From Minisyncoccia bacterium (GTDB taxonomy: Bacteria > Patescibacteriota > Minisyncoccia > Phycocordibacterales > UBA918), in NCBI GenBank assembly GCA_041750655.1, contig JBGSYZ010000013.1, forward strand, positions 4,769 through 68,768: a DNA stretch of 64,000 nt, written 5' to 3'. The notes under the pieces were generated by a model, which was given only the letters and a program-made list of their open reading frames with translations, was not told the origin of the DNA and searched no databases. Below, piece by piece: positions 7,381 through 18,860 of this stretch. The first letter of the stretch is position 1; each line of letters opens with the position of its first letter. The translations under genes and the position numbers were made by a program.

Positions 7381-7719
7381 GTGGAATCAGAAATACTGGT
7401 TGAAGGAAATACCGAATTAGCCGTTCGAGAATACTTCAAAGATATACCGGTAATGATTCAAATTGCACGCTGTGAGTCTCATTTCAGACACACACTTGCT
7501 GATGGTTCTGTTCTTCAGGGACGAGTAGACTCAGCTGACACAGGAGTAATGCAAATCAACAAGCGTTATCACCAAAGTGAGGCTTTGAAACTCGGAATTG
7601 ATTTAACAGACCTAGAAGGAAACATGACGTATGCCCGGCATCTCTATGAGACGCAAGGTACTCGGCCATGGAATGCTTCTGCTCAATGTTGGAAAGGAAA
7701 TTTAGCTTTGGCTAAATAA
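7381..7719 (+). CDS. lytic transglycosylase (SLT/GH23 lysozyme-like domain) protein; the true N-terminus is uncertain
   Basis: Catalytic E-S (ARCESHF) followed by the TGVMQIN motif, typical of the SLT domain. The ORF track starts at GTG 7381, but the same frame is open from 7264 and encodes a signal-peptide-like LIISTFITAFLAVSGVGGVAVPA. Confidence 0.55.
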   Translation: MESEILVEGNTELAVREYFKDIPVMIQIARCESHFRHTLADGSVLQGRVDSADTGVMQINKRYHQSEALKLGIDLTDLEGNMTYARHLYETQGTRPWNASAQCWKGNLALAK

Positions 7720-8261: not shown

Positions 8262-8269
8262 GATTGGGT

Positions 8270-8728
8270 ATGAATTACTGGTTAATGAAAAGTGAACCCG
8301 ACTGTTTCTCGATTGATGATTTGAAAAAGAAGAAGAAGGAAATGTGGGACGGTGTACGAAACTATCAGGTACGAAATATGATGCGTGATCAAATGGAAAA
8401 AGGAGACCGAGCACTTTTTTATCACTCAAGTGCTGGTGATAAAACTGGAATAGTTGGTGAGATGGAAATAGTAAATGAAGCCTATCCTGACCCAACTCAG
8501 TTTGATCCTACAAGTGAACATCCAGATCCAAAAAGCACAAAAGATAATCCTACCTGGTTATGTGTAGATGTGAAGTTTGTCCAGAAATTTAAAAACCCAG
8601 TGTATCTTAAAGAACTTAAACTTGATCCAGCTTTTGCCAGTATGATTGTCACCCAAAAAGGTAATCGACTGTCAATAACTCCGGTGAGCAAGAAACATTT
8701 TGACAGAATTATCAAATTGTCTGCCTAA
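8270..8728 (+). CDS. EVE (PUA-like) domain protein
   Basis: MNYWLMKSEPDCFSIDDL… is a typical EVE N-terminus. The ORF track starts at TTG 8264; ATG 8270 is preferred. Confidence 0.85.
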   Translation: MNYWLMKSEPDCFSIDDLKKKKKEMWDGVRNYQVRNMMRDQMEKGDRALFYHSSAGDKTGIVGEMEIVNEAYPDPTQFDPTSEHPDPKSTKDNPTWLCVDVKFVQKFKNPVYLKELKLDPAFASMIVTQKGNRLSITPVSKKHFDRIIKLSA

Positions 8729-8889
8729 GTTGAAAATTAGTGAATATAGGCATAGAGTAGGGGAGGTAAACGGGAGGAAATAAAATGCCCCAAAAAATTC
8801 CGTGTTCTGGAAAAAAAGAGGTAAAGATTACTAACGTTGAGATCAGAAATACACTGCTTAGCACCACAGCAATCGGCAACCTGCTAAAA

Positions 8890-9090
8890 ACAATTGCTGG
8901 TTTTGCTGCCGCAATTGGTATCCAGTGAAGCACCAGAAGAGAAGGGCCGTCCCAGAGGCGGCCCTTATTACTATTTATATACGTCGTACAATATATCTTT
9001 TGCGACGTATACAACGGGCCTGCGTAGGCCCCTTGTATACGTTGCAAAAGATACTTATATTGCGGTCTCATCTGAGTCGCAACTATAAGT
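8890..9090. repeat. cluster of nested inverted repeats / stable hairpins in non-coding DNA
   Basis: CAATTGC…GCAATTG (8891-8924), GGGCCG…CGGCCC (8944-8964), ATACGTCG…CGACGTAT (8979-9010), and a 15-bp IR TTGCGACGTATACAA/TTGTATACGTTGCAA flanking a GGGCCTGCGTAGGCCC hairpin (9000-9047). Confidence 0.6.
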
Positions 9091-9614
9091 TTTGAGACTT
9101 ATTGCGTGTATCTATTTCTATACCAAGTTAATGTTTGTCAGTATTTATTATTTAGTTTGATTTCTAATCATTTTTAACTATTAATATAAATTTCTTCCTT
9201 ATCCAGCTTCGGTTCAGCAAACTGATAAGTTCACTCCAAAGTCTGCTAAAACGAGCCTCTAGAATTGATTCTAAGGCTTTTGAGTATAAAAAGAGGTACT
9301 AGGAGTCGCAGACCCTGGCATAAAAAACTGGGTTTGTTAGTGCATTATACTTTATAAGCCTTGATACTATTCGGGCATCAGTTTTACTATAAAAAATTTT
9401 GAATGCTTAAATTAAATTTTCTGTGCACGTATACAAAAGTAAAATTTTTTTAAATTTATTCTTACTACGATGAGTTTTAAAACGTTAACTTTTGTAACTT
9501 GTTAACGCTCCCTCAAATCAAAATCAAAACTATCAAATTTATTAGAAAAGACTCCCCACCCTCTCTCACTTCCCTCTATTAAAATATTGTGCGACCCTTA
9601 GTAAAAAAACAAAA

Positions 9615-9740
9615 CTGCTTGGTAAGCAGCCGTAATTAAAGTGCCGAAAGCCCAGCTTCATGTTCCAGTGTGTGGTGGGAAATGAAGCCGGGCTTTCGAT
9701 CGGGTAAGTTCCTACGAGCTTGCGCTCGCACTTATATAAT
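9615..9740 (+). other. three consecutive hairpins ending at a TATAAT box
   Basis: CTGCTT-GGTA-AGCAG (9615-9629); 17-bp stem CGAAAGCCCAGCTTCAT/ATGAAGCCGGGCTTTCG (9645-9698); CGAGC-TTGC-GCTCG (9716-9729); TATAAT at 9735-9740. Confidence 0.45.
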
Positions 9741-9775
9741 ACCCTTTTTAAAGACTCACTACCCCCCTTTTCCCC

Positions 9776-9870
9776 ACAAACAGTCTGGGAGACTGTTTGT
9801 GTTGGTTATAACAGTCTCCGAGACCTGTTTGTGTTGGTTACATAGTCTCGTGAATATTTGTGATTATATC
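9776..9870 (+). repeat. 2.5 tandem ~32-nt hairpin + U-tract repeats (terminator-like) on the plus strand
   Basis: ACAGTCTGGGAGACTGTTTGTGTTGGTTA / ACAGTCTCCGAGACCTGTTTGTGTTGGTTA / degenerate third copy. Confidence 0.6.
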
Positions 9871-9874
9871 GTTA

Positions 9875-11179
9875 CTACTGTGGCAAGTACAACATTGGGT
9901 CTAGATAGGCATCGGTAGCGGCAATTGGAGTAGTTGCCGAGCCACAACTGGTTACAGTCTTAATTTCATTGAATTTACGAATAGTAACACCGGCGCTCGC
10001 ATATACAGTAAAGTGAAGGTGTGGACCAGTTGAATAGCCAGTATTACCACTGTAACCAATAATGTCCCCAGTCGCGACTGATTCACCAGGAGTAACACTC
10101 TGTAAATCTTGGTGAGCATATAGAGTGGTAAGACCATTTGGGTGGTCAATAAGTGTCCACTTGCCCCAAGAGTAACATCCAGGAAACGCGTCAGTATTAC
10201 CCGTTGCACGAACTGTACCGCCCAAGGGGGCGTAAATAGGTGTACCGCGCGGCACTCCAAAATCAACCCCCGGGTGGTATGCACGACCACCATACACACT
10301 AGCGTTTCGCTTCGCAAACTCAGTTCCACCAAAGTATTGAGTAATAATTACGTTATCAACTGGCCATCGAAACACTCCAGTACCAGGAACCGGAACGGAA
10401 TTTGGATCAAGAATAAACTGTAATTTAGCCTCAAAGTCACGCATCTCCTTTTCTATCTGGTCTTTAGCTGCTTTTTTCTGGGCTAACAAACTTTGGTACT
10501 CTGCCTCTTGATTTTTAGTTTTCTTTAAAAGAGTATCTTTCTCACTCTTGTTGTTGGTAAGAAGACTTTGTTGGTCGCTGTATTGGTCTTTTAAATCGAG
10601 AAGCTCACCACGTCGATAATGTTCAGACTCACGCTTGCTTTCCAGAAGATCTTTTAAGTTAGTAAGATTGTCCACCCGTTGACTTATTGAAGAACGTACT
10701 GATTCCAATTCTTCCAGTGAATTCCAGTAGTCAGAAATATCATCAAATGAAAGAAGGGTTTCAATCATGGATTGCTGATCTTGGGTATATACACTGCGAA
10801 TAATTTCTCGTAACGCGTCTTGATTTTCAAAAATATTTTCTTCGGTGTTGTTGATTTCAATATTAAGCTTACTAATCTCCAAATCAGTTGAACCAATTTT
10901 CGTTTCAGTGTATTTGAGATCGGCTGTTACTTTTTTCCTCTCTAGTTCCAGTTGGTTAATGGCTTTTTGGAGCGTGCTCTTTTCGGCACCAACCTCTAGT
11001 AAAGCTGCTTCAAATTGCGCAATTTCTTGCTCAATTTGTGACAGTCGATTGCTTCGATCATTGATCTCATCTTTCAACTTTTCAATTTCTGTCTGGGCAA
11101 ACGCAAAATGAGTCCCTAAAGAGAGACTGGGAACGAGCGCGAGGCCCATCACAAAAGCCATTAGAGTAGCTCTACTCAT
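9875..11179 (-). CDS. M23-family peptidase with N-terminal signal peptide and long coiled coil (EnvC/LytM-like murein hydrolase activator)
   Basis: HPGVDFGVPRGTPIYAPLGGTV and GNTGYSTGPHLHFTVY M23 motifs; coiled-coil N-terminal half. Confidence 0.85.
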   Translation of the reverse strand: MSRATLMAFVMGLALVPSLSLGTHFAFAQTEIEKLKDEINDRSNRLSQIEQEIAQFEAALLEVGAEKSTLQKAINQLELERKKVTADLKYTETKIGSTDLEISKLNIEINNTEENIFENQDALREIIRSVYTQDQQSMIETLLSFDDISDYWNSLEELESVRSSISQRVDNLTNLKDLLESKRESEHYRRGELLDLKDQYSDQQSLLTNNKSEKDTLLKKTKNQEAEYQSLLAQKKAAKDQIEKEMRDFEAKLQFILDPNSVPVPGTGVFRWPVDNVIITQYFGGTEFAKRNASVYGGRAYHPGVDFGVPRGTPIYAPLGGTVRATGNTDAFPGCYSWGKWTLIDHPNGLTTLYAHQDLQSVTPGESVATGDIIGYSGNTGYSTGPHLHFTVYASAGVTIRKFNEIKTVTSCGSATTPIAATDAYLDPMLYLPQ

Positions 11180-11182
11180 TAC

Positions 11183-12655
11183 TTATATTTTATCACAGGC
11201 TGTCTGGATTCGTAGTAACGTTTCTTCTTTTCCTAGTATATGAGCGACTGTAAATGGGTCTGGAGAGCGTTCACGACCGGTTAAGGATACTCTCAGAGGC
11301 CATAAAACCTCACCTTTGCCTACTTGTTCAGCGTATGCCCAGAGTGAGGCTTTTATGGTTTCTGGCGTAGAAAAGTCTGCGTTTTGGAGTAGCTTTTGAG
11401 TGTGCTCTAGACGTGGCCGCGCCGTGGCCGCGCTCTCATCGTTTTTCCACTTAATAAGTTCTGCAGAAACTTCTGGGGAGGTAAAAGCCCAGTCATACTC
11501 CCCTGTCTCCATAGCTTCTTTAATTTCTAGTTTGTTGTGGATACGCTCAAGAATGGTTGGGTACATTTTACCCACCCTGTCTTCACTGTACTGCGGGAGT
11601 AATTTAATAGTGTCAGGCACACCGGACAAAACGTACGCTAATTTTTCGTGGTCAGACAAGGTAGTCGCGATATGTTCCTTGTTCATCCAGCGTAATTTAT
11701 CCTCGTTAAAAGCACCACCGGATTTTTGAATCCCAGATAAACTAAAAGCTTCAATTAATTCCTGTTCATCAAAAAATAATTCTCTATCATCTCCTGGGTT
11801 CCAGCCGATTAACGATAAAAAGTTTCGTAATGCGCTGGGTAGGTACCCATCAGCGTCGTATTCGAGTGCGTCTTTAGACCCATCACGTTTACTTAGTTTT
11901 TTCTTTCCGTCTGGTCCCAATATTGGCGGTAAGGTAACGAATTTAGGATACTCGACTTCAAGTGCATCATACAAGCTGAGGAATTTTGGCATACTCGAAA
12001 TGAATTCTTCACCACGCATTACATGAGTCACTCCCATTTCTAGATCGTCTACTATGTGAGCAAAGTTGTACGTTGGGTACCCATCAGCTTTAATAAGAAT
12101 AAAATCATCCACCATTTCTTCGCCAGCGGTTAATTCTCCCCGGACTTCATCCTGCCAAGTGTAGCGTTTTATCTCTGGAACTTTCAGACGCAATGGCCGA
12201 CTTCCATCCCAGACACCAAAAGTTTTTGGTCGGTGGTTACGATATAGAAATGGTCTTTTTTCAGCTATAGCGTTGTCTCTGAAGGCTGTTACTTCCCCTT
12301 CTGTATACGGATCGGGATACGCCAAGCCTTTTTCAATTAATGTGTCAGCGTACTTTTTATATGTTTCTAGTCGCTCAGACTGGATACAGCTGCCAAAATT
12401 CTCACTTGGTGTATTGGGACCATAGTCCCAGGTGACTCCAAACCAACGTAAAGAGTTTTGAATTTGTTCAATAGAACCAGCCACTTCCCTCTCTTTATCA
12501 GTGTCTTCAATACGAAGAATAAACGTTCCGTTATTTTTCCTAGCCCAATAATAAGCAAACAGTGCAGTGCGTACACCACCAATATGTAAAAATCCGGTTG
12601 GTGACGGAGCAAATCTCGTCACGACAGTGTTAGTTTTGGGCATGTTCTTTGGCAA
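11183..12655 (-). CDS. gltX: glutamyl-tRNA synthetase
   Basis: RFAPSPTGFLHIGGVRTALFAYYWARK (HIGH motif) and KLSKRDG (KMSKS motif). Confidence 0.9.
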   Translation of the reverse strand: MPKNMPKTNTVVTRFAPSPTGFLHIGGVRTALFAYYWARKNNGTFILRIEDTDKEREVAGSIEQIQNSLRWFGVTWDYGPNTPSENFGSCIQSERLETYKKYADTLIEKGLAYPDPYTEGEVTAFRDNAIAEKRPFLYRNHRPKTFGVWDGSRPLRLKVPEIKRYTWQDEVRGELTAGEEMVDDFILIKADGYPTYNFAHIVDDLEMGVTHVMRGEEFISSMPKFLSLYDALEVEYPKFVTLPPILGPDGKKKLSKRDGSKDALEYDADGYLPSALRNFLSLIGWNPGDDRELFFDEQELIEAFSLSGIQKSGGAFNEDKLRWMNKEHIATTLSDHEKLAYVLSGVPDTIKLLPQYSEDRVGKMYPTILERIHNKLEIKEAMETGEYDWAFTSPEVSAELIKWKNDESAATARPRLEHTQKLLQNADFSTPETIKASLWAYAEQVGKGEVLWPLRVSLTGRERSPDPFTVAHILGKEETLLRIQTACDKI

Positions 12656-13760
12656 TTGAAATTAAGGTATCAGCTAGGGCAAAAGCAGCGTGATGAATAA
12701 AGAATGACTCGGCACCACGACGCATTTTGGCCTGTAATTCAGCATCTTGCATGATACGTTCGATTTCAGCAACTAGCAAATTTTCAGTCAAATTGCGCTC
12801 TTCCATGACAATAGCACCACCAGTCCGTGCGTACGCAAAAGCATTAGTGCGTTGGTCGTGGCTAATTTCTTCCGGAATTGGTACTAAAATAGCTGGCTTT
12901 TGATGAAACGCAATTTCTGAAATGGTGCTACTACCAGCTCGACTAACAATGAGCGTTGCAAAGCTTTGTAAGGCATGAAATTCATCACCTGGTACATTAC
13001 CAAACACATGATATCTTTCACGTAAATCTTTGTCTTCAATAAGTAAGTCAGCAGTTTGAATCATCAAATCCGCATTATCACGCCCCGCTTGATGCACTAT
13101 TTGGTAGTGCGGCAATATTTCATTAAGTAAGTTTAAAACAAAATTATTTATCCGCTCTGCTCCAAGAGAGCCAGTCACAAACAATATATACGGATCCCCA
13201 GGAATAATTTCCTGCTCGCGCAAACCTTTGGTGTTTGGCTCTTCATAAAATACTTTTCGTAGTGGTATACCCACAAGAGAAGTTTTTTTGGCTTCAAAGA
13301 ATTTAGCTGCTTCTGGATACGAGATCCCAATATACCGAGCAAATCGCCTCGCGAACATATTTGCTCGCCCTGGTGTAGCATCAGATTCGTGTATGACAAT
13401 CGGTATTTGCAGTACGAACGCAGCGAGGACTACCGGTACACTAGTGTGGCTACCTTTACTAAAAACTACATCCGGATAAATCGAAAAGAGCTGTCGTAAG
13501 GCTACGAAAAAACCTCGAATGGTTTTAAATATGTCTGTAAAATTTTGCAAAGAAAAATAACGCCGTATTTTACCGGCTGGGCACCAAACATAGGAGATAC
13601 TGAGCTTACCTAACGCCGGCTCGTCAAAAATTTCTGGGCCAATATAAAACAGTTCAATTTCGGTACCAAGCTCTGTTTCGCGGGCGCGTAGAGCTTCAGC
13701 GGTTGCTATCAGGGGGTAAAAGTGCCCACCCGAACCGCCTCCAACTAACATTATTCGCAT
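12630..13760 (-). CDS. murG: UDP-N-acetylglucosamine:lipid I GlcNAc transferase MurG
   Basis: MRIMLVGGGSGGHFYPLIATAEAL G-loop; position in the dcw cluster. Confidence 0.9.
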   Translation of the reverse strand: MRIMLVGGGSGGHFYPLIATAEALRARETELGTEIELFYIGPEIFDEPALGKLSISYVWCPAGKIRRYFSLQNFTDIFKTIRGFFVALRQLFSIYPDVVFSKGSHTSVPVVLAAFVLQIPIVIHESDATPGRANMFARRFARYIGISYPEAAKFFEAKKTSLVGIPLRKVFYEEPNTKGLREQEIIPGDPYILFVTGSLGAERINNFVLNLLNEILPHYQIVHQAGRDNADLMIQTADLLIEDKDLRERYHVFGNVPGDEFHALQSFATLIVSRAGSSTISEIAFHQKPAILVPIPEEISHDQRTNAFAYARTGGAIVMEERNLTENLLVAEIERIMQDAELQAKMRRGAESFFIHHAAFALADTLISIAKEHAQN

Positions 13761-13788
13761 ATCAATATTGTATCATCAACGATCCAAA

Positions 13789-14892
13789 CTAAGACTTGAT
13801 TCGTCGTTGATATTTTGAAACATTAAGTACCAGACCAACCGAGGCTAAGGTGACCATCATGGCCGTTCCGCCGTGACTTATGAACGGAAGCGGCAATCCT
13901 GACAACGGCACGAGCGCCACCATGGCAGCAATATTTAAAAATGCTTGGGCTACAATAACGGTCATGATACCAACCACTAATAACATACCAAATAAGTCTG
14001 TGGCTCGTGATGCAATCTTGTACCCCCGCAACGCAAAGCCTGTTAATAAGGCAATAAGTAATGAACTACCTAAAAATCCAAATTCTTCACTGTAGACAGC
14101 AAACACCGAGTCACCGATAGGTTCTGGCAGGTACTCAAATTTTTGAATACTTTGCCCGAATCCTCGACCGGTAATCTGTCCTGAACCGATAGCGATTAAT
14201 GATTGTTTTATTTGGTACCCTGAACCTTGTGGGTCAAGAGACGGGTTAATAAAGGTCATAATACGGTCTTTAATATATGGTCTAGTGAAAGCCAAAATAA
14301 TCAACATTACCACTGCACACGTGCCAATAGTAATAACATGACTCCATTTCCCACCCGCCGTAATAAACATAGCAGTGGCCGCCATACCCATAATGACGAA
14401 CGTATCAGTATCAGGTTGCATAAGCATTACCAATCCCACTGCTCCAGTGATACCAACAAAAGGCAATGTGCCGTAACGCCAGGTTTCAATTTTCTTATGG
14501 ACTCCTGAAAGCCAAGTGGCTATATAGATAATAAAACCAATTTTTAGAACTTCGGCTGGTTGAAACGTAAAGGAACCAATATGAAGCCAACGAGTAGCAC
14601 CACCATGACTCATTCCGATTCCCGGTACAAACACCATTAAAGTTAGCACAATTGAAGCAATAAAGACGTACACTGCGTATTTGCGCCAAATACGATAATG
14701 AATCGCGCTACTAAAAAACATCGCGATACTCCCTCCGATAATACCGAACACAATCTGACTAAAGGCAACTGAGGTAAAACTAGCTCCATCACGAGCCAAT
14801 AAACCGAGTGAAGCAGAAGTAAAAATAAAAAAGCCATCAGCGACCAGCAGCCCAGTAATGGCAAGTAGGGTTTTGTCGATGCCATGATGCAT
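13789..14892 (-). CDS. ftsW: SEDS-family lipid II flippase/polymerase (FtsW/RodA)
   Basis: 10 TM helices; conserved C-terminal SHGGTAMM-like region; lies between mraY and murG. Confidence 0.85.
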   Translation of the reverse strand: MHHGIDKTLLAITGLLVADGFFIFTSASLGLLARDGASFTSVAFSQIVFGIIGGSIAMFFSSAIHYRIWRKYAVYVFIASIVLTLMVFVPGIGMSHGGATRWLHIGSFTFQPAEVLKIGFIIYIATWLSGVHKKIETWRYGTLPFVGITGAVGLVMLMQPDTDTFVIMGMAATAMFITAGGKWSHVITIGTCAVVMLIILAFTRPYIKDRIMTFINPSLDPQGSGYQIKQSLIAIGSGQITGRGFGQSIQKFEYLPEPIGDSVFAVYSEEFGFLGSSLLIALLTGFALRGYKIASRATDLFGMLLVVGIMTVIVAQAFLNIAAMVALVPLSGLPLPFISHGGTAMMVTLASVGLVLNVSKYQRRIKS

Positions 14893-14893
14893 A

Positions 14894-15952
14894 TTACAAA
14901 ACTATGGCCAATAGAAATCCAACAATCGCGCACACAAACCCGAGCACCCAGTATCGCATGGTTACTTTATAGCTCGGCCAACCGAGAGCCTCAAAATGAT
15001 GATGAATTGGAGCAACTAAAAATACTTTTTTTCCGCGCAGTTTTTTCGAGCCAACTTGAATTAGGTTGGAGACAACTGTCACCACCAGTAAAAATGCCAC
15101 TACAGGCAGAACACTAACACCTTTTCCGTCAGCTAGTGTGTCAGTCATAAATGCAATTACGGTCAGTGTCATGGTCAGAGCCATTACTCCAGTTTCAGTC
15201 ATGTAAAACCTAGCGGGTGGGATGTTGAACCACAAAAAGGCTAAGATTCCTCCGACAATAGTAGCGCACAACGCTGCGATATCAATCTGATTCTGATAAA
15301 AAGCAATACCAGTATAGGCAGCGAAAATAAACATAAATACCCCACCAGAAAGGCCATCGATACCGTCAATTACGCTACTGGAGTACACAGCTACTGCTAT
15401 TAGAATAAAGAATGGTATAAAGAAAATCCCAAGTTGAACTTCTGATGAGAAGAAGCTGACGCTCGAAACATCTAGCTTTTCATAAAACCACCAGGCTGAA
15501 AATAAAGCTGTTGCTCCAACCACTAGAATTCTTTGTGATAAGGGCAGTCCACCGGCAAAGTGTTTTCCTCCCCCACTAACTACCAAGTAATCATCAATAA
15601 AGCCAACCAAAGCACCAATGGCCAGAGCAAACAATGGCAACCAGGTTTGGGAACGACTTAAGAAATTAAATTCTTCATAGCCTAGCCACGCTATGAGTGA
15701 AGTGATGCCGATAGTAATAAAAATACTGGCCCAAATGACTATACCGCCCATGCGTGGCGTGTTCGTATCTTTTTCTTTGTGGAGTTTATCAAAAATTGGT
15801 GTTGCTCCCCCACCGTACCCTGTTCCTTTACCAGCTTTTTTCTTCCACATTTCATTCTTATAAAGCCATGTTGAAACAAAAGGAGTCACAATCAGCCCCA
15901 CCAAAAAAGCAATAGCAGTGGGAGCAAAGATTTTAACAAGTGCAGTTTCCAT
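14894..15952 (-). CDS. mraY: phospho-N-acetylmuramoyl-pentapeptide transferase MraY
   Basis: VIDGIDGLSGG and PIHHHFE motifs. Confidence 0.85.
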   Translation of the reverse strand: METALVKIFAPTAIAFLVGLIVTPFVSTWLYKNEMWKKKAGKGTGYGGGATPIFDKLHKEKDTNTPRMGGIVIWASIFITIGITSLIAWLGYEEFNFLSRSQTWLPLFALAIGALVGFIDDYLVVSGGGKHFAGGLPLSQRILVVGATALFSAWWFYEKLDVSSVSFFSSEVQLGIFFIPFFILIAVAVYSSSVIDGIDGLSGGVFMFIFAAYTGIAFYQNQIDIAALCATIVGGILAFLWFNIPPARFYMTETGVMALTMTLTVIAFMTDTLADGKGVSVLPVVAFLLVVTVVSNLIQVGSKKLRGKKVFLVAPIHHHFEALGWPSYKVTMRYWVLGFVCAIVGFLLAIVL

Positions 15953-15957
15953 AAAAA

Positions 15958-16971
15958 TTATTCACTAAAAAGTAATCTGGTGGCTTTGCTTAATTTCAAC
16001 ACATCTTCAAATCGACCATCTCGCGAAGAGTCTAGAACCACAACGACAATTGGGTGGTTTAGACCCACGTCGAAGGCGATTACCAGGTTACCACCAGCGA
16101 GTGTGGTGTAGCCTGTTTTAGAGCCGATCAACCCCGGTATTCTATTTACCACACCATTAGTATTTTGGGCATTATGAAAATCACCATTTTGATTATAAAA
16201 ACGAGTTGATGATTCTTTTGTCTCAACCAGTATTTCTGGATAATTACTTACGATGTAGCTCATAAGATGAGCAATATCTTTGGCCGAACCAAAAGCCCCT
16301 GCTTGGTTTTCAGATAAGTCTAATCCTGTTGGGTTATAGAACTTTAGTGAATTCAGCTCGAGTTGGTCGGCTCGAATATTCATGGCCTCGATAAAAGTGC
16401 CGGCATCAATACTGCCAGCCAGTTCGCCACCAGCGGCTTCAGCTAGCGCGTAGGCGCCGTCATTTGATGAGGTCATAAGGGTCATATCACTGAGTGTTTG
16501 ACGTGTAAATCTCTCGCCACCCAGTAAGCCACTGTCTCCTTCTTGGGCAATGGCGTTATAGGTAACGCCAACTGTTGATTTTTCTGACAAGATCTCGTTG
16601 GCCAGTAAAGCGGTCATGAGTTTAGTGACTGACGCCAATGGCAATACTTCGTCGGCGTTCTTAGCGTACAACACTTGACCAGTTTGCATATCAAACACAT
16701 ACGCCGCTTTGGCAGTTACTGTGACGTTTTCAATTTTCTTTTCAACACTAGGCTTGCTACTAATAACAGCGGCTGCTTGAGCGTTGGCGTTTTGGGATTC
16801 GTTTGGGGGTAAAGCTTTTTGAGCAAATTCAGTAATCTGCCCGACAATAGCTGAACTGAATATAACTATCAGCAAAACCATTAAAATTACCAATTGCCAA
16901 AAAACCGGCTGACGGGTGTAGTCAGGGTTGGTGGTTTGATATGAATGCTCTACATTATTTTCTCCTTCCAT
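15958..16971 (-). CDS. serine-type D-Ala-D-Ala carboxypeptidase (S11, PBP5/DacA-like)
   Basis: SxxK (ASVTK), SxN (SSND) and KTG (KTGYT) motifs. Confidence 0.8.
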   Translation of the reverse strand: MEGENNVEHSYQTTNPDYTRQPVFWQLVILMVLLIVIFSSAIVGQITEFAQKALPPNESQNANAQAAAVISSKPSVEKKIENVTVTAKAAYVFDMQTGQVLYAKNADEVLPLASVTKLMTALLANEILSEKSTVGVTYNAIAQEGDSGLLGGERFTRQTLSDMTLMTSSNDGAYALAEAAGGELAGSIDAGTFIEAMNIRADQLELNSLKFYNPTGLDLSENQAGAFGSAKDIAHLMSYIVSNYPEILVETKESSTRFYNQNGDFHNAQNTNGVVNRIPGLIGSKTGYTTLAGGNLVIAFDVGLNHPIVVVVLDSSRDGRFEDVLKLSKATRLLFSE

Positions 16972-16979
16972 ATATAAAA

Positions 16980-17531
16980 TTAAGTCGCCGCATCCTCAGC
17001 TTCAGGCTGAGTAGCTGCAAAGTTATCCAAAGCCGTCGCTACTGTAGCATAATCTGGCAAACCTTCCTTTTGTTCTATTCCGAGGTGTGCTAAGAGTGCT
17101 GGTGTAGCCTGGTAACTATACCCTCGGGCACTTTCACTTCCTACTCGTTCTACCAAGCCACGTATCTGTAGGTTGCGAAGAATAAACGAAGAATTTACTC
17201 CGCGGATCCGATCTATCTCAATTCGACTTATTGGGCCGCGGTATAAAATCACCGCCAATGTTTCGGCTCCAGCGCTGCCGATATCACGCTTTAAATCGTC
17301 ACGTCTGATTCGTTCAATTACTTCTGCGTGCTCGGGGGCAGTCATAATTTGTACTTCTTTGGTATCTGACACAATCAGACGAAGGCCTCTGGTAGACAGA
17401 TTTTGTTGTAAAGACACTAAAGCGTTACCTAAGTTTTCAGCGTCAGTGGCAAAAAACTTCAGCAACCACGAAATAGCCACCGGTTTGGCTTTGTAAAATA
17501 AGACTGCCTCGATGTGTTGTTCGAGCTCCAC
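16980..17531 (-). CDS. scpB: segregation and condensation protein B
   Basis: IEAVLFYKAKPVAISWL… winged-helix ScpB pattern; 183 aa. Confidence 0.85.
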   Translation of the reverse strand: MELEQHIEAVLFYKAKPVAISWLLKFFATDAENLGNALVSLQQNLSTRGLRLIVSDTKEVQIMTAPEHAEVIERIRRDDLKRDIGSAGAETLAVILYRGPISRIEIDRIRGVNSSFILRNLQIRGLVERVGSESARGYSYQATPALLAHLGIEQKEGLPDYATVATALDNFAATQPEAEDAAT

Positions 17532-18116: not shown

Positions 18117-18860
18117 TTAAAAATACCCTGGAGCTCCCTTGCCTTCCCTTTCAATATGGATATCATCAAAGCGACGGGCTTGAGCTACTAAGATGGAGCC
18201 TTGTTTGACTGACTCAAGCACGGCGAGAAATCCAACAATCACCGAACCTCTTTCTTTCTCATCTTTGATTAAGTCACTAAATCGTAGCTTCAGTTGCCTT
18301 TGTATACGCTCATGTAGACGATCAATCATTTCTTCCAGCGAAACAACTTTCTTTACTTGTACTTTTGGTTTTATTTCGGTTTTGGGGAGATTGGTTACAA
18401 CATTTCGGGCCGCTTCACTAAGAGCACTTAGATTTGTGAATTTATCCTCTACAAAAATTGGCTCGTCTGGGAGTACAAACGCACTCTCGTACATCATGTG
18501 TTGGCCAAAGATGTTTTGGATGGTTCTGCCAGCTTCACGGTAGATTTGGTACAGCTTAAGTCGGTGCTCAAGATCTTCGATTTTTTCTTCTTCCTCGTCG
18601 GTGAGTTCTAGAACCGGTAGTAAGGATTTGGATTTTATTAAAAGTAAGGTGGCGGCCAGGGTAATGAACTGGGCGGTATTAGGGAGTGAAAGTTGTTGCA
18701 TGTGTGAGACACGCGCCATGTATTCGTTGGTTACTTCGGCCAGGGATATGTCATTAATCAAAAGCTTTCGTTTCTCAACGAGTTCGATAAGGAGTTCTAA
18801 CGGTCCTTCAAACACTGGGGTTTTAACCGCGAACGTAGGCTCGTGCGTTGTACTAGGCAC
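18117..18860 (-). CDS. scpA: segregation and condensation protein A
   Basis: FEGPLELLIELVEKRKLLINDISLAEVTNEYM N-terminal kleisin motif; 247 aa. Confidence 0.85.
   Translation of the reverse strand: MPSTTHEPTFAVKTPVFEGPLELLIELVEKRKLLINDISLAEVTNEYMARVSHMQQLSLPNTAQFITLAATLLLIKSKSLLPVLELTDEEEEKIEDLEHRLKLYQIYREAGRTIQNIFGQHMMYESAFVLPDEPIFVEDKFTNLSALSEAARNVVTNLPKTEIKPKVQVKKVVSLEEMIDRLHERIQRQLKLRFSDLIKDEKERGSVIVGFLAVLESVKQGSILVAQARRFDDIHIEREGKGAPGYF

Follow-up and report, generated by a model that had tools for sequence, protein, structure and literature searches.

The intergenic interval next to the M23 peptidase gene in the DNA analysed here, a 64-kb stretch that we call the window, most likely belongs to the replication terminus of a Patescibacteria (CPR) chromosome of Paceibacteria type, where functional pieces are mixed with debris. 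The best explanation of the whole, a dif site at the terminus together with the remains of a lost sugar-metabolism operon and a retained leader RNA, has a probability of roughly 0.8 in our judgement. The interval is five separate features and not one locus; its elements are listed below.

8785–8928 (+): putative small protein gene of 47 aa (ORF), with a GGGAGG Shine-Dalgarno (SD) sequence at 8772–8777, 7 nt upstream
8942–8966 (+): intrinsic terminator of the small gene (terminator scan), with a 10-bp stem containing 7 GC pairs, then ATTACTATTT
8981–9008 (-): dif-like site of 28 bp, ACGTCGCAAAA-GATATA-TTGTACGACGT, a candidate chromosome dimer resolution site
8994–9021 / 9026–9053 (strandless): palindrome with 28-nt arms, 93% complementary, around GGGCC-TGCGTA-GGCCC
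9039–9090 (+): degenerate inverted copy of dif, ACGTTGCAAAA-GATACTTA-TATTGCGGTCT, read from the sequence
9096–9602 (-): decayed, 5'-truncated pseudogene of pgl (6-phosphogluconolactonase, Pfam Glucosamine_iso), ~500 nt
9584–9595 (+): dif right-arm half-site, ATATTGTGCGAC, ~590 nt from dif and inverted relative to it
9603–9731 (-): structured RNA of ~128 nt, comprising SL1, a joining strand, SL2, a terminator and a U-run
9732–9745 (-): -10-like box, GGGTATTATATAA, directly upstream of the RNA 5' end
9776–9874 (-): tandem hairpin unit of ~32 nt in ~3 copies, immediately 3' of the M23 stop codon (9875–9877)

All sequence features that an earlier note on this DNA had listed were found where it had placed them, to within a few bases. 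Its view that the interval is not a simple spacer was borne out: it holds a small structured RNA and a DNA site likely to bind protein.

The dif-like site carries the main reading. Read directly from the sequence of the minus strand, 8981–9008 has the 11-6-11 architecture of dif: a 6-bp centre is flanked by 11-bp arms of imperfect symmetry, the dyad axis falls between positions 14 and 15, and bases are complementary at 11 of the 14 position pairs of the 28-mer consensus. By the definition of the dif family, such a dyad with an asymmetric centre is the core-site layout of tyrosine recombinases (PMC5357621). A position-weight-matrix (PWM) scan of the window returned this site as its sole match (44.6 of 50.3 bits). 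The 24-nt core, GTCGYAAAAGATATATTGTRCGAC, was matched exactly in at least 120 genome stretches, once in each, from as many different Patescibacteria assemblies or species, against ~0.3 matches expected by chance. These belonged to Saccharibacteria, Paceibacterota, Nomura-, Kaiser-, Campbell-, Yonath- and Azambacteria; three contigs with the match carry the labels Bdellovibrionales or Pseudomonadales. No second full site was found by PWM in the 64-kb window or in the 8-kb loci around these matches (at least 120), copy number being a local measure over the window and the loci. Among 117 aligned sites, in which the 24-nt core is fixed by the search pattern itself, conservation was limited to ~28–30 nt, with information content of ~0 beyond; the AT-rich centre was the most invariant part. 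Conservation thus covers the 28-mer only and leaves flanks and neighbourhood variable, and the flanks of proteobacterial dif sites are likewise unconserved (PMC2731167).

Position agrees with this assignment. A dif site is expected in the replication terminus, near the cumulative GC skew maximum (PMC2731167), and the cumulative G–C maximum of the window falls at 8841, 140 nt from the dif-like site. Genes converge on the site, GC skew flips there, and ~50 kb of almost purely minus-strand genes follow the maximum. Skew to the left of the site exceeded skew to the right in 61 of 69 loci (p = 1.6e-11; means +0.059 and -0.054), and ORF orientation switched as well, 80% of long ORFs lying on the plus strand on the left and 77% on the minus strand on the right. 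The window and the loci therefore place the site at the terminus on local evidence. In L138, L140, L010, L005 and L141 (L numbers denote relatives and their loci) skew falls across the site without a sign change, and part of the skew signal could come from convergent transcription alone. The dif-like site is downstream of both converging gene sets, 50–1100 nt from either. Left neighbours reading towards it in the at least 120 loci include MurG (41), M23 peptidase (44), GluRS (32) and FtsW (22), and an unannotated 308-aa family takes this place in 29 loci; right-hand neighbours vary by lineage. The site is always found where the dcw (division and cell wall) cluster ends.

Neither a Xer recombinase gene nor an FtsK gene was detected in the 64-kb window (Pfam on eight ORFs picked by size, and a six-frame catalytic-motif scan), and no recombinase gene adjoined the site in ~1 Mb of flanks, except for one motif match in L045. 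A search of the available literature returned no paper linking CPR with dif or Xer and none containing the motif. Taken together, 8981–9008 is probably the dif site of this organism; dif itself is a known kind of site, of which CPR dif is most likely a further case. One or more Xer-type tyrosine recombinases would bind both arms and exchange strands across the 6-bp centre, and this exchange would convert chromosome dimers to monomers at division.

The CPR site resembles those of XerCD/dif in E. coli and CodV-RipX/dif in B. subtilis in its 28-bp length, its 11-bp arms with partial dyad and 6-bp centre, the AA/TT beside the centre, conservation limited to the 28-mer, a cumulative GC-skew maximum between converging replichores and an unlinked recombinase gene (PMC5357621, PMC2731167). 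It differs from both in its more symmetric arms, in a centre that is invariant across very deep lineages and in its place at the end of the dcw cluster. Compared with E. coli K12 dif (GGTGCGCATAATGTATATTATGTTAAAT, PMC2731167), 16 of 28 positions are identical in either orientation (~8 expected by chance), and the inner arms are CAAAA/TTGTG, not CATAA/TTATG. At archaeal XerA/dif, too, the 28-bp site is highly conserved and its arms are fairly symmetric (PMC5357621, PMC2958812), and the arm symmetry of the CPR site makes it compatible with a single recombinase. In the XerS/difSL and XerH/difH systems the recombinase genes adjoin their sites and the centres are longer (PMC5357621, PMC2958812), whereas the ~1 Mb of flanks of the CPR site showed no adjoining recombinase gene apart from the L045 motif match.

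Partial copies of dif accompany the site. The 15-bp inverted repeat described earlier is real and longer than claimed, extending to the 28-nt arms given above, and its right arm repeats the dif left arm and central region in inverted orientation. As single-stranded DNA, 8970–9100 folds with z = -10.4 relative to shuffles. The GC hairpin at 9012–9029 is retained with altered sequence in L001, L005 and L138. The degenerate inverted copy, 30 bp from dif, merges into a second hairpin (9053–9090) made of right-arm-like repeats. It received no PWM score as a dif site with a 6-bp spacer, is 88% identical to L001 compared with 48% for adjoining neutral DNA, and is also conserved in L005 and L138; inverted left-arm copies occur 28–45 nt from dif in four distant loci too.

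A 9-mer, CGTATACAA, had been singled out as a repeated motif. Copies are indeed present at 9006 (+), 9033 (-) and 9428 (+), with a fourth at 18300 (-), giving four against 0.48 expected in the window, a number reached in 0 of 100 shuffles. The 9-mer is nonetheless not a functional unit: the copies at 9006 and 9033 form the outer flank of dif and of its inverted degenerate copy and, being two arms of one palindrome, count as one event, while that at 9428 is not conserved in the closest relative.

The right-arm half-site has been kept in every pseudogene lineage (L001, L132, L100 and L091) and is embedded at nucleotides 155–166 in four of four intact pgl genes. In these genes the codon just before the motif is GGT, CGT or TGT; the encoded residue differs, but the DNA motif stays. 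Extra right-arm 11-mers numbered 10 in 863 kb against ~0.8 expected, all within 705 nt of dif. The inverted copy and the half-site presumably bind the same recombinase without recombining.

The region is not wholly non-coding by origin, as had been supposed, since ~500 nt of it is the decayed pgl. This stretch is colinear with the intact pgl of L005, in which KGRTIFCMGDERW corresponds to KGRTIF-stop-stop-REVRE in the window, so that similarity to a colinear orthologue, syntenic position and disabling mutations (the in-frame stops after KGRTIF) are all in evidence. Its local alignment score was 45 against 26.6 ± 3.9 for shuffles, and that of the L132 copy 69 against a shuffle maximum of 46; identity of the remnant to L001 is just 48%. 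The remnant begins at the conserved half-site. An intact layout, M23-RNA-zwf-gnd-pgl-dif, was found in L138 and L140, and the deletion junction is identical in the window, L001 and L132, which dates the loss of the operon before the split of these lineages. On the M23 side, the ancestor would have carried M23, a promoter and leader RNA, zwf-gnd-pgl and dif. In the window lineage a deletion would have removed zwf, gnd and ~150 nt at the start of pgl, with the remaining pgl decaying apart from the embedded half-site; on the other side of dif, an MFS transporter gene would have been lost and the small gene beside dif shortened.

That small gene, with its SD sequence and terminator, was overlooked when the interval was said to hold no credible ORF. 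The dismissal of the 64-aa and 119-aa ORFs as spurious was sound, and these and an 82-aa ORF overlie palindromes or structured RNA without support. The 47-aa ORF is the positional homologue of a 68–69-aa gene beside dif in L001, L005 and L138, with the same upstream block. It shares 42% identity with the L001 protein over its C-terminal 24 aa (E = 0.019), and a hairpin with different sequence occupies the terminator position in L001 and L005. A Pfam search of the ORF gave no match and its family was found in close relatives alone; that 8785–8928 is a real gene is uncertain.

The structured RNA is the other conserved piece. SL1 has 7 bp and a GCAA loop, the joining strand UAGGAACUUACCC is invariant, and SL2 (~22 bp, 9645–9698) is the hairpin previously reported as a 17-bp stem; the hairpin is present, but its arms (9645–9667 / 9676–9698) are 23 nt long and 87% complementary. 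A minus-strand terminator scan identified the intrinsic terminator at 9613–9631, with its U-run. The minus-strand RNA folds at -52.6 kcal/mol (z = -6.6; plus strand, z = -4.75), and G–U wobble changes and genomic context place it on the minus strand. The plus-strand small RNAs ending at 9790–9840 that had been proposed are not supported. A covariance model (CM) built from four lineages scored 134 bits at the window RNA and also found it in L001, L005, L132, L134, L138 and L140, always on the zwf/M23 strand. Standard pairs fill 93% of paired cells, and four pairs changed on both sides; covariation was 0.118 compared with 0.068 for shuffles (1 of 500 reached it) and at most 0.035 for slid controls, in seven sequences from one clade with ~3 independent events. 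Outside a 33–35-nt apex insertion, the RNA is 97% identical to L001 (87/90), compared with 48% for the adjacent pgl pseudogene. Rfam 15 gave 0 matches across the whole window at gathering thresholds and, in 8600–10000, nothing beyond sub-threshold miRNA-type hairpin noise, so the Rfam scan suggested earlier names no family. We regard 9603–9731 as a candidate new RNA motif.

The RNA lies directly upstream of zwf, on the same strand, in L005, L134, L138/L139 and L140; it thus holds a 5'-leader position in zwf-keeping relatives but not in the window, where zwf is deleted. In L005 an opposite-strand 278-aa gene stands between the RNA and M23, and the RNA is still next to zwf. No RNA was found in L141, a distant relative with the same operon. 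A terminator between RNA and zwf is absent in L134, L138 and L140 and weak in L005; orphan copies have a strong one, whereas zwf-linked copies have none or a weak one. No alternative pairing of the kind a switching expression platform would use was identified in the zwf leader RNA. The TATAAT box noted earlier is present at ~9735–9740, and in every lineage (G/A)UGCGA is immediately preceded by a -10-like hexamer (TATTAT in the window, L001, L132 and L140; TAGAAT in L134; CATAAT in L005; TACAAT in L138), from which we infer a transcription start directly after this box. The former zwf promoter and 5' leader would have survived the loss of the operon and, because a strong intrinsic terminator follows them, would now specify a stand-alone ~128-nt RNA. 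Purifying selection on this RNA implies a role independent of zwf, possibly as a trans-acting or protein-binding RNA.

The ~32-nt tandem hairpin repeats described earlier are also there: Tandem Repeats Finder (TRF) reported 9779–9840 (period 32, 2.0 copies, 90% matches), and a third, degenerate copy runs to ~9870. The unit occurs nowhere else in the window, and relatives carry one copy (L132), three (L001) or none (L134). The repeats had been read as plus-strand terminators, and one unit does pass a plus-strand terminator scan (9775–9801), but they sit directly 3' of the minus-strand M23 stop and vary from 0 to 3 copies. On the M23 strand a 12-bp repeat stem is followed by GGGGAAAAGG and no U-tract, so they are not established as a canonical terminator there. 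They are probably a duplicated 3' hairpin of the M23 transcript.

Several other explanations have to be weighed against a terminus with dif. It is very improbable that the 28-mer is bound by a regulator of cell division or the cell wall, or acts as a special terminator, at the dcw 3' end and is conserved because the dcw cluster is. Dcw genes are the left neighbours reading towards the site in many of the at least 120 loci, the skew sign change is absent in some relatives, and location at the end of the cluster makes a dcw-tied role possible. However, the site is downstream of both converging gene sets, with lineage-dependent neighbours on the right; the switch in the window is of replichore scale, followed by 50 kb of one strand; and the 11-6-11 dyad with asymmetric centre is a tyrosine-recombinase layout (PMC5357621). 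The terminator version fits poorly, since invariance peaks in the AT-rich centre, with no U-tract after it. We consider it very improbable that the dif-like arms, the pseudo-dif (the inverted copy) and the half-site are junction scars of a dif-integrated mobile element (an IMEX, integrative mobile element exploiting Xer, or a dif module), with the variable nearby genes (zwf operon, MFS) as its cargo. The genes adjoining dif do vary among relatives (MFS, zwf operon, HAD, racemase, 278-aa gene), partial copies of dif are clustered no further than 705 nt from it, and a stretch of ~450–590 nt is flanked by a direct right-arm repeat in L007 and L010. Yet such a module holds its cargo between dif and a second direct dif-like site, and neither the window nor any of the at least 120 loci has a second full site; the pseudo-dif is inverted and merely 30 bp from dif in this lineage. 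The half-site, also inverted, occupies the same codon position within the coding sequence of pgl in each of four diverged genomes, which fits a fixed chromosomal feature and not an element junction, and the M23-zwf-gnd-pgl-dif layout is syntenic across 57% to 100% zwf identity. The earlier suggestion of an oriC-proximal or iteron/operator locus, with plus-strand small RNAs ended by the 32-nt repeats, is largely refuted and retains next to no probability. The palindrome-dense sequence, the repeated 9-mer and the one plus-strand terminator-like match at 9775–9801 would suit it, but genes converge here, cumulative skew is at a maximum, not a minimum, and DnaA boxes (TTATCCACA, at most one mismatch) are at chance level, with 18 matches against 17.6 expected and none between 6781 and 11536. 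Its 9-mer copies are flanks of dif and the inverted copy, its RNA belongs on the minus strand by wobble changes and context, and its repeats directly follow the minus-strand M23 stop in unconserved number. What stands of a protein-binding locus is a likely recombinase site, dif-like and single-copy in the window, in place of an iteron or operator array.

For the RNA, the question is whether 9603–9731 is a functionless relic that has yet to decay, either a cis-acting zwf 5' UTR or promoter or an extended M23 3' UTR, which we judge unlikely. The RNA is the zwf leader wherever zwf is present and always lies downstream of M23, as a relic would. Against this, the deletion predates the split of the window, L001 and L132, and since then the pgl remnant has fallen to 48% identity while the RNA, outside the apex insertion, remains identical at 87 of 90 positions. 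The L005 RNA stays by zwf although the 278-aa gene separates it from M23, and strong terminators mark the orphan copies, in contrast to lacking or weak ones in the zwf-linked copies.

With a terminus dif and a retained RNA as the preferred reading, two analogies bear on what the accessory elements might do. Karaboja et al. (2021, Mol Cell) reportedly found that XerD-binding half-sites (XDS) in the B. subtilis terminus unload SMC complexes. The CPR half-site would resemble these as a lone dif arm that lies close to dif at the terminus and is conserved with no partner; it differs in being usually one copy, 0.2–0.7 kb from dif and sometimes within coding sequence, and we take the resemblance as a lead. 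Likewise, the Listeria SAM riboswitches SreA and SreB are said to combine a leader function with action in trans (Loh et al., 2009, Cell). The likeness would lie in a 5' leader ending at a terminator, giving a short stable RNA usable apart from its downstream gene; here, the downstream operon is wholly lost in the window genome, and the RNA is known from sequence alone, matches no Rfam family and is confined to one Paceibacteria sub-clade. Two further readings, which we hold jointly only as a tentative possibility, are that the RNA is an undescribed cis-regulatory class and that the half-site and pseudo-dif are functional accessory sites of CPR Xer. Under the former, the RNA may be a metabolite- or protein-sensing leader of the Paceibacteria oxidative pentose-phosphate operon, which would have been exapted as a trans-acting small RNA in operon-less lineages. 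Under the latter, half-site and pseudo-dif might act XDS-like in SMC unloading, or control synapsis, and, if true, this would be a terminus organization not described for any phylum.

A large part of bacterial diversity belongs to Patescibacteria, almost all of them uncultivated and known from fragmented metagenome-assembled genomes (MAGs). An exact 24–28-nt terminus marker could orient and check CPR assemblies, anchor growth estimates from ori/ter coverage ratios and flag mis-binned contigs, and the 28-mer supplies a defined substrate with which to ask what Xer system operates in these reduced genomes. The locus also shows genome reduction at the terminus, with an operon being lost while an embedded DNA site and a leader RNA are retained, and with this leader RNA central carbon metabolism gains a concrete candidate for a new regulatory RNA.

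The interval at 8730–9875 lies between two convergent genes in a window of ~41% G+C, with ~50 kb of genes to its right that are nearly all on the minus strand and genes mostly on the plus strand to its left. Its borders and main features are:

8264–8728, plus strand: EVE-domain gene, converging on the interval
8785–8928, plus strand: 47-aa ORF, ribosome-binding site GGGAGG, terminator at 8942–8966
8981–9008, minus strand: candidate dif site
9603–9745, minus strand: near-invariant block with, in order, a TATTAT box, stem-loop SL1, UAGGAACUUACCCGAU, stem-loop SL2, a linker and a terminator
9875–11179, minus strand: M23 peptidase gene, converging on the interval

All features that the earlier note had listed for this region are present in the sequence and its observation is real, except that its statement of no credible ORF overlooked the 47-aa ORF with its ribosome-binding site and terminator. 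Upstream, 7381–7719 (plus strand) encodes a protein of 112 aa that matches the lysozyme-like SLT_3 family weakly, below threshold.

Homologues of the M23 peptidase were encoded in assemblies of Patescibacteria (CPR), several of which carry the name Pacebacteria, Kaiserbacteria or 'Patescibacteria group', and we set the contigs encoding close homologues against the interval (loci and contigs of relatives are designated L001–L141). Similarity was found in blocks. Compared to relative L001, identity was 93% for the dif block, 88% for the adjoining hairpin and degenerate inverted dif copy (pseudo-dif), 87% for a 23-nt block at 9580–9602 and 87 of 90 ungapped columns at 9640–9731, while 9100–9579 (48%) and the small ORF (40%) were poorly kept; as a yardstick, EVE and M23 coding DNA was ~75–80% identical. 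Judged from these relatives, the interval reads as a mosaic.

The most notable element of the locus is a dif-like site, a candidate Xer chromosome-dimer-resolution site with a core found unchanged in at least 120 CPR species. Part of the block at 8935–9117 persists in relatives with an M23 only 59–69% identical, with the sequence ACGTCG(C/T)AAAA-GATATA-TTGT(G/A)CGAC(A/G)T. Scanning 596 Gb of sequence in which each species was represented by one genome (~0.3 chance matches expected), we found GTCGYAAAAGATATATTGTRCGAC in at least 120 stretches, each with one match and each from a different assembly, including, among the matches listed, Saccharibacteria, Paceibacterota, Nomura-, Kaiser-, Campbell-, Yonath- and Azambacteria, and Minisyncoccia. 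When these were aligned on the motif, conservation ended ~2–3 nt beyond the 24-mer and the flanks were unrelated. The site comprises a 6-nt centre and, on either side of it, an 11-nt arm; the arms show partial dyad symmetry. This arrangement is the defining layout of dif (PMC5357621). A position-weight matrix built from 118 sites had a single match in the 64-kb window, that at 8981–9008 on the minus strand (44.6 of 50.3 bits).

Nucleotide skew and gene orientation were evaluated in the 69 loci that extend at least 1.5 kb either way from the site. Mean GC skew was +0.059 left of it and −0.054 right of it, the left value exceeded the right in 61 of the 69 loci (Wilcoxon p = 1.6e-11), and long ORFs converged on the site (left, 80% plus strand; right, 77% minus strand). 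The maximum of the window's cumulative G−C curve, at 8841, is 140 nt away from the site. Five relatives show a drop in skew across the site with no change of sign. Because a 28-mer, variable flanks and closeness to the cumulative-skew maximum were the criteria used to identify proteobacterial dif sites (PMC2731167), we read the 28-mer as the dif site of Patescibacteria, with a probability of roughly 85%. The dif-like site was also located at ~395.8 kb in CP174360.1 and ~771.7 kb in CP060229.1. No Xer or FtsK gene was found in the window, no recombinase next to dif appeared among the 15 largest neighbour-gene clusters of dif loci, and a six-frame motif scan for a recombinase near dif gave one match in ~1 Mb. 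A literature search found no paper linking CPR to dif or Xer and none containing the motif.

These data also bear on the nature of the locus as a whole, which the earlier note had taken for small RNAs and/or an iteron- or operator-like protein-binding site, possibly close to oriC. An oriC or iterons were rejected on the basis of skew, gene orientation and DnaA boxes, and most likely the locus is a replication terminus rather than an origin or operator. The note's reading was partly right: the interval holds a candidate protein-binding DNA site and a candidate small RNA. [quoted passage not shown]

The previously described 15-bp inverted repeat proved to be larger, with 28-nt arms (8994–9021 and 9026–9053) that are 93% complementary. 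The minus strand at dif reads TTGTATACGTCGCAAAAGATATATTGTACGACGTATA, so the repeated 9-mer CGTATACAA flanks the left arm of dif on its outer side. The window has four copies of the 9-mer versus 0.48 expected, and a single palindrome accounts for two of them, one per arm. The second copy is part of a duplicate, in inverted orientation, of the left arm and centre of dif, beyond a small GC hairpin (9012–9029) that is kept in L001, L005 and L138 with altered sequences. This duplicate extends into a degenerate dif whose spacer is longer (9039–9068), which then merges into a second hairpin (9053–9090) made of right-arm-like repeats; an inverted left-arm copy 28–45 nt from dif also occurs in four distant loci. 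The copy at 9428 has no conserved counterpart in L001 and was put down to chance, and the fourth, at 18300–18308 (minus strand) within the minus-strand ORF 18117–18860 and far from the locus, is probably chance.

In relative L005 the interval is interrupted by the sugar-metabolism operon zwf-gnd-pgl. The intact layout in L138 and L140 runs from the division and cell wall (dcw) cluster through GluRS, M23, a short gap, zwf and gnd to pgl, all towards dif; converging from the opposite side are a 68-aa gene, MFS and EVE in L138 and a racemase, two small genes and EVE in L140, with DoxX and ROK farther out in both and Band_7 between these in L138. This layout is syntenic with the window, in which 9096–9602 (minus strand) is colinear with pgl (6-phosphogluconolactonase): where pgl of L005 reads AAGGGTCGCACAATATTTTGCATGGGGGATGAGCGG, encoding KGRTIFCMGDER, the window has AAGGGTCGCACAATATTTTAATAGAGGGAAGTGAGAG, stop codons included. 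The remnant gave a local alignment score of 45 versus 26.6 ± 3.9 for shuffles, and the copy in L132 scored 69 against a shuffle maximum of 46. From the synteny and the colinear, stop-bearing similarity we infer that a deletion took out zwf, gnd and the initial ~150 nt of pgl and that the rest of this gene decayed, making the AT-rich middle of the interval very likely a pgl pseudogene. The MFS gene across dif is also lost. Only in the L005/L133 lineage is M23 separated from the zwf leader RNA by an inserted gene, which lies on the opposite strand (L005 2226–3062, minus strand) and encodes a 278-aa protein that belongs to no Pfam family.

A short stretch of pgl escaped this decay. It is a 12-nt half-site, positioned as follows, together with direct copies seen elsewhere:

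Window 9584–9595: half-site GTCGCACAATAT, the reverse complement of the dif right arm, abutting the deletion junction
L005 5858–5869, L138 12479–12490, L140 12484–12495 and L141 12490–12501: the same 12-mer within pgl, at matching codon positions in these four diverged genomes
L007 ~5375 and L010 ~9966, also L030, L038, L053, L064, L107 and L111: direct-orientation right-arm copies, ATATTGTGCGACA

The 12-mer is intact in each lineage with a dead pgl (window, L001, L132, L100 and L091) and lies at nt 155–166 in all four intact pgl genes adjoining dif, ~600–630 nt from it. The preceding codon in intact pgl is GGT, CGT or TGT (NGT; Gly, Arg or Cys), such that the amino acid changes and the DNA motif is kept. 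Across the 120 dif-centred distant loci (L012–L131), extra right-arm 11-mers numbered 10 versus ~0.8 expected, all ≤705 nt from dif. Retention despite a variable codon, survival beyond the loss of pgl and the right-arm excess near dif point to selection on the half-site as a DNA site. The direct-orientation copies occur in lineages lacking pgl, 200–640 nt from dif and often right behind the stop codon or terminator of the upstream gene; in L064 there is, in addition, a degenerate full site whose spacer is longer.

Beyond the half-site, the minus strand at 9603–9731 probably encodes a functional structured RNA. Its TATTAT box is −10-like, SL1 is a 7-bp hairpin with a GCAA loop, UAGGAACUUACCCGAU is single-stranded, SL2 is a hairpin of ~22 bp and the end is a good intrinsic terminator with a U-run. 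The 17-bp stem noted earlier corresponds to SL2 and is longer, with 23-nt arms. Folding favored the minus strand (z = −6.6 versus −4.75 for the plus strand), and every single-sided change gives a G-U pair on the minus strand that would be an A-C mismatch on the plus strand. A covariance model using four lineages found the RNA in L134 and L138/L139, a shorter form in L140 and the 5′ part at the contig end of L006, with a compensatory change in SL1. Over seven lineages, 93% of cells were paired, four pairs changed on both sides and covariation was 0.118 versus 0.068 in shuffles, a value reached by 1 of 500 and based on few independent events, which lends the proposed structure moderate support.

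The distribution of the RNA is narrow. The covariance model had no match in the 120 distant dif loci, and the RNA is not present in the distant Nomurabacteria locus L141, where the 87-nt M23–zwf gap contains only a terminator and a promoter-like box. An exact 21-mer matched only 2 metagenome contigs in a search beyond the clade, and an nhmmer search with three sequences gave no matches. In L005, L134, L138 and L140 the RNA follows the −10-like box and precedes the start codon of zwf; it was therefore ancestrally a zwf leader. Because a single deletion junction is common to the window, L001 and L132, loss of the operon predates their divergence. Since that loss the RNA has remained 97% identical and the adjacent pgl remnant has fallen to 48%, which implies a function independent of zwf, and we infer a stand-alone small RNA.

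Rfam gathering thresholds gave no matches in the whole window, a permissive scan of the interval returned hairpin-type noise only, and a tRNA/tmRNA scan of the whole window found none. SL2 tolerates a ~33-nt insertion in its apical loop in L001 (7513–7545) and is reduced to 9 bp with an AUUA loop in L140, so its distal half is dispensable. SRP, 6S and RNase P were considered on their conserved motifs and dropped given this continuous helix with a dispensable apex and no Rfam match, and a CCACC apical-loop motif as a seed was dropped on account of the short L140 stem and its loop. Pairing of the invariant joining strand with zwf start regions showed no consistent complementarity (four lineages, by eye). 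The small ORF and the RNA showed no complementarity that would suggest a type I toxin–antitoxin pair, and they are unlinked in relatives.

The tandem hairpin repeats beside M23 (9776–9874), previously read as plus-strand terminators, are present as 32-nt units that start 5–10 nt past the minus-strand M23 stop codon and vary in copy number (0 in L134, 1 in L132, ~3 in the window and L001). A dispersed repeat or MITE origin was rejected, the hairpin occupying a single locus in the window and being found nowhere else there. There is no U-tract behind the stem on the M23 strand, and we therefore call the repeats a putative duplicated 3′ hairpin of M23 and not a proven terminator. Six independent assemblies of relatives (L006, L008, L009, L135, L136 and L137) end 50–230 nt beyond the stop codon of M23, either within the repeats and RNA or shortly ahead of them, which suggests strain-level variation or repeat-induced assembly breaks.

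Three contigs binned as Bdellovibrionales or Pseudomonadales (L026, L116 and L040) carry the exact CPR motif and are probably mis-binned Patescibacteria, and the motif could be used as a binning check. Near dif in 16 distant loci there recurs a ~150-aa family with the CESHFR motif of the window's 112-aa protein. The dcw cluster always precedes the site: in the 120 distant loci and the window (9875–17000), the dif-like site lies just beyond its end in Paceibacteria and Saccharibacteria, with FtsW, MurG, GluRS and M23, or an unannotated 308-aa family, on one side and ribosomal protein L27/L9 genes converging from the other. Because of this placement, the cell-division cluster appears to be located at the replication terminus throughout the phylum.
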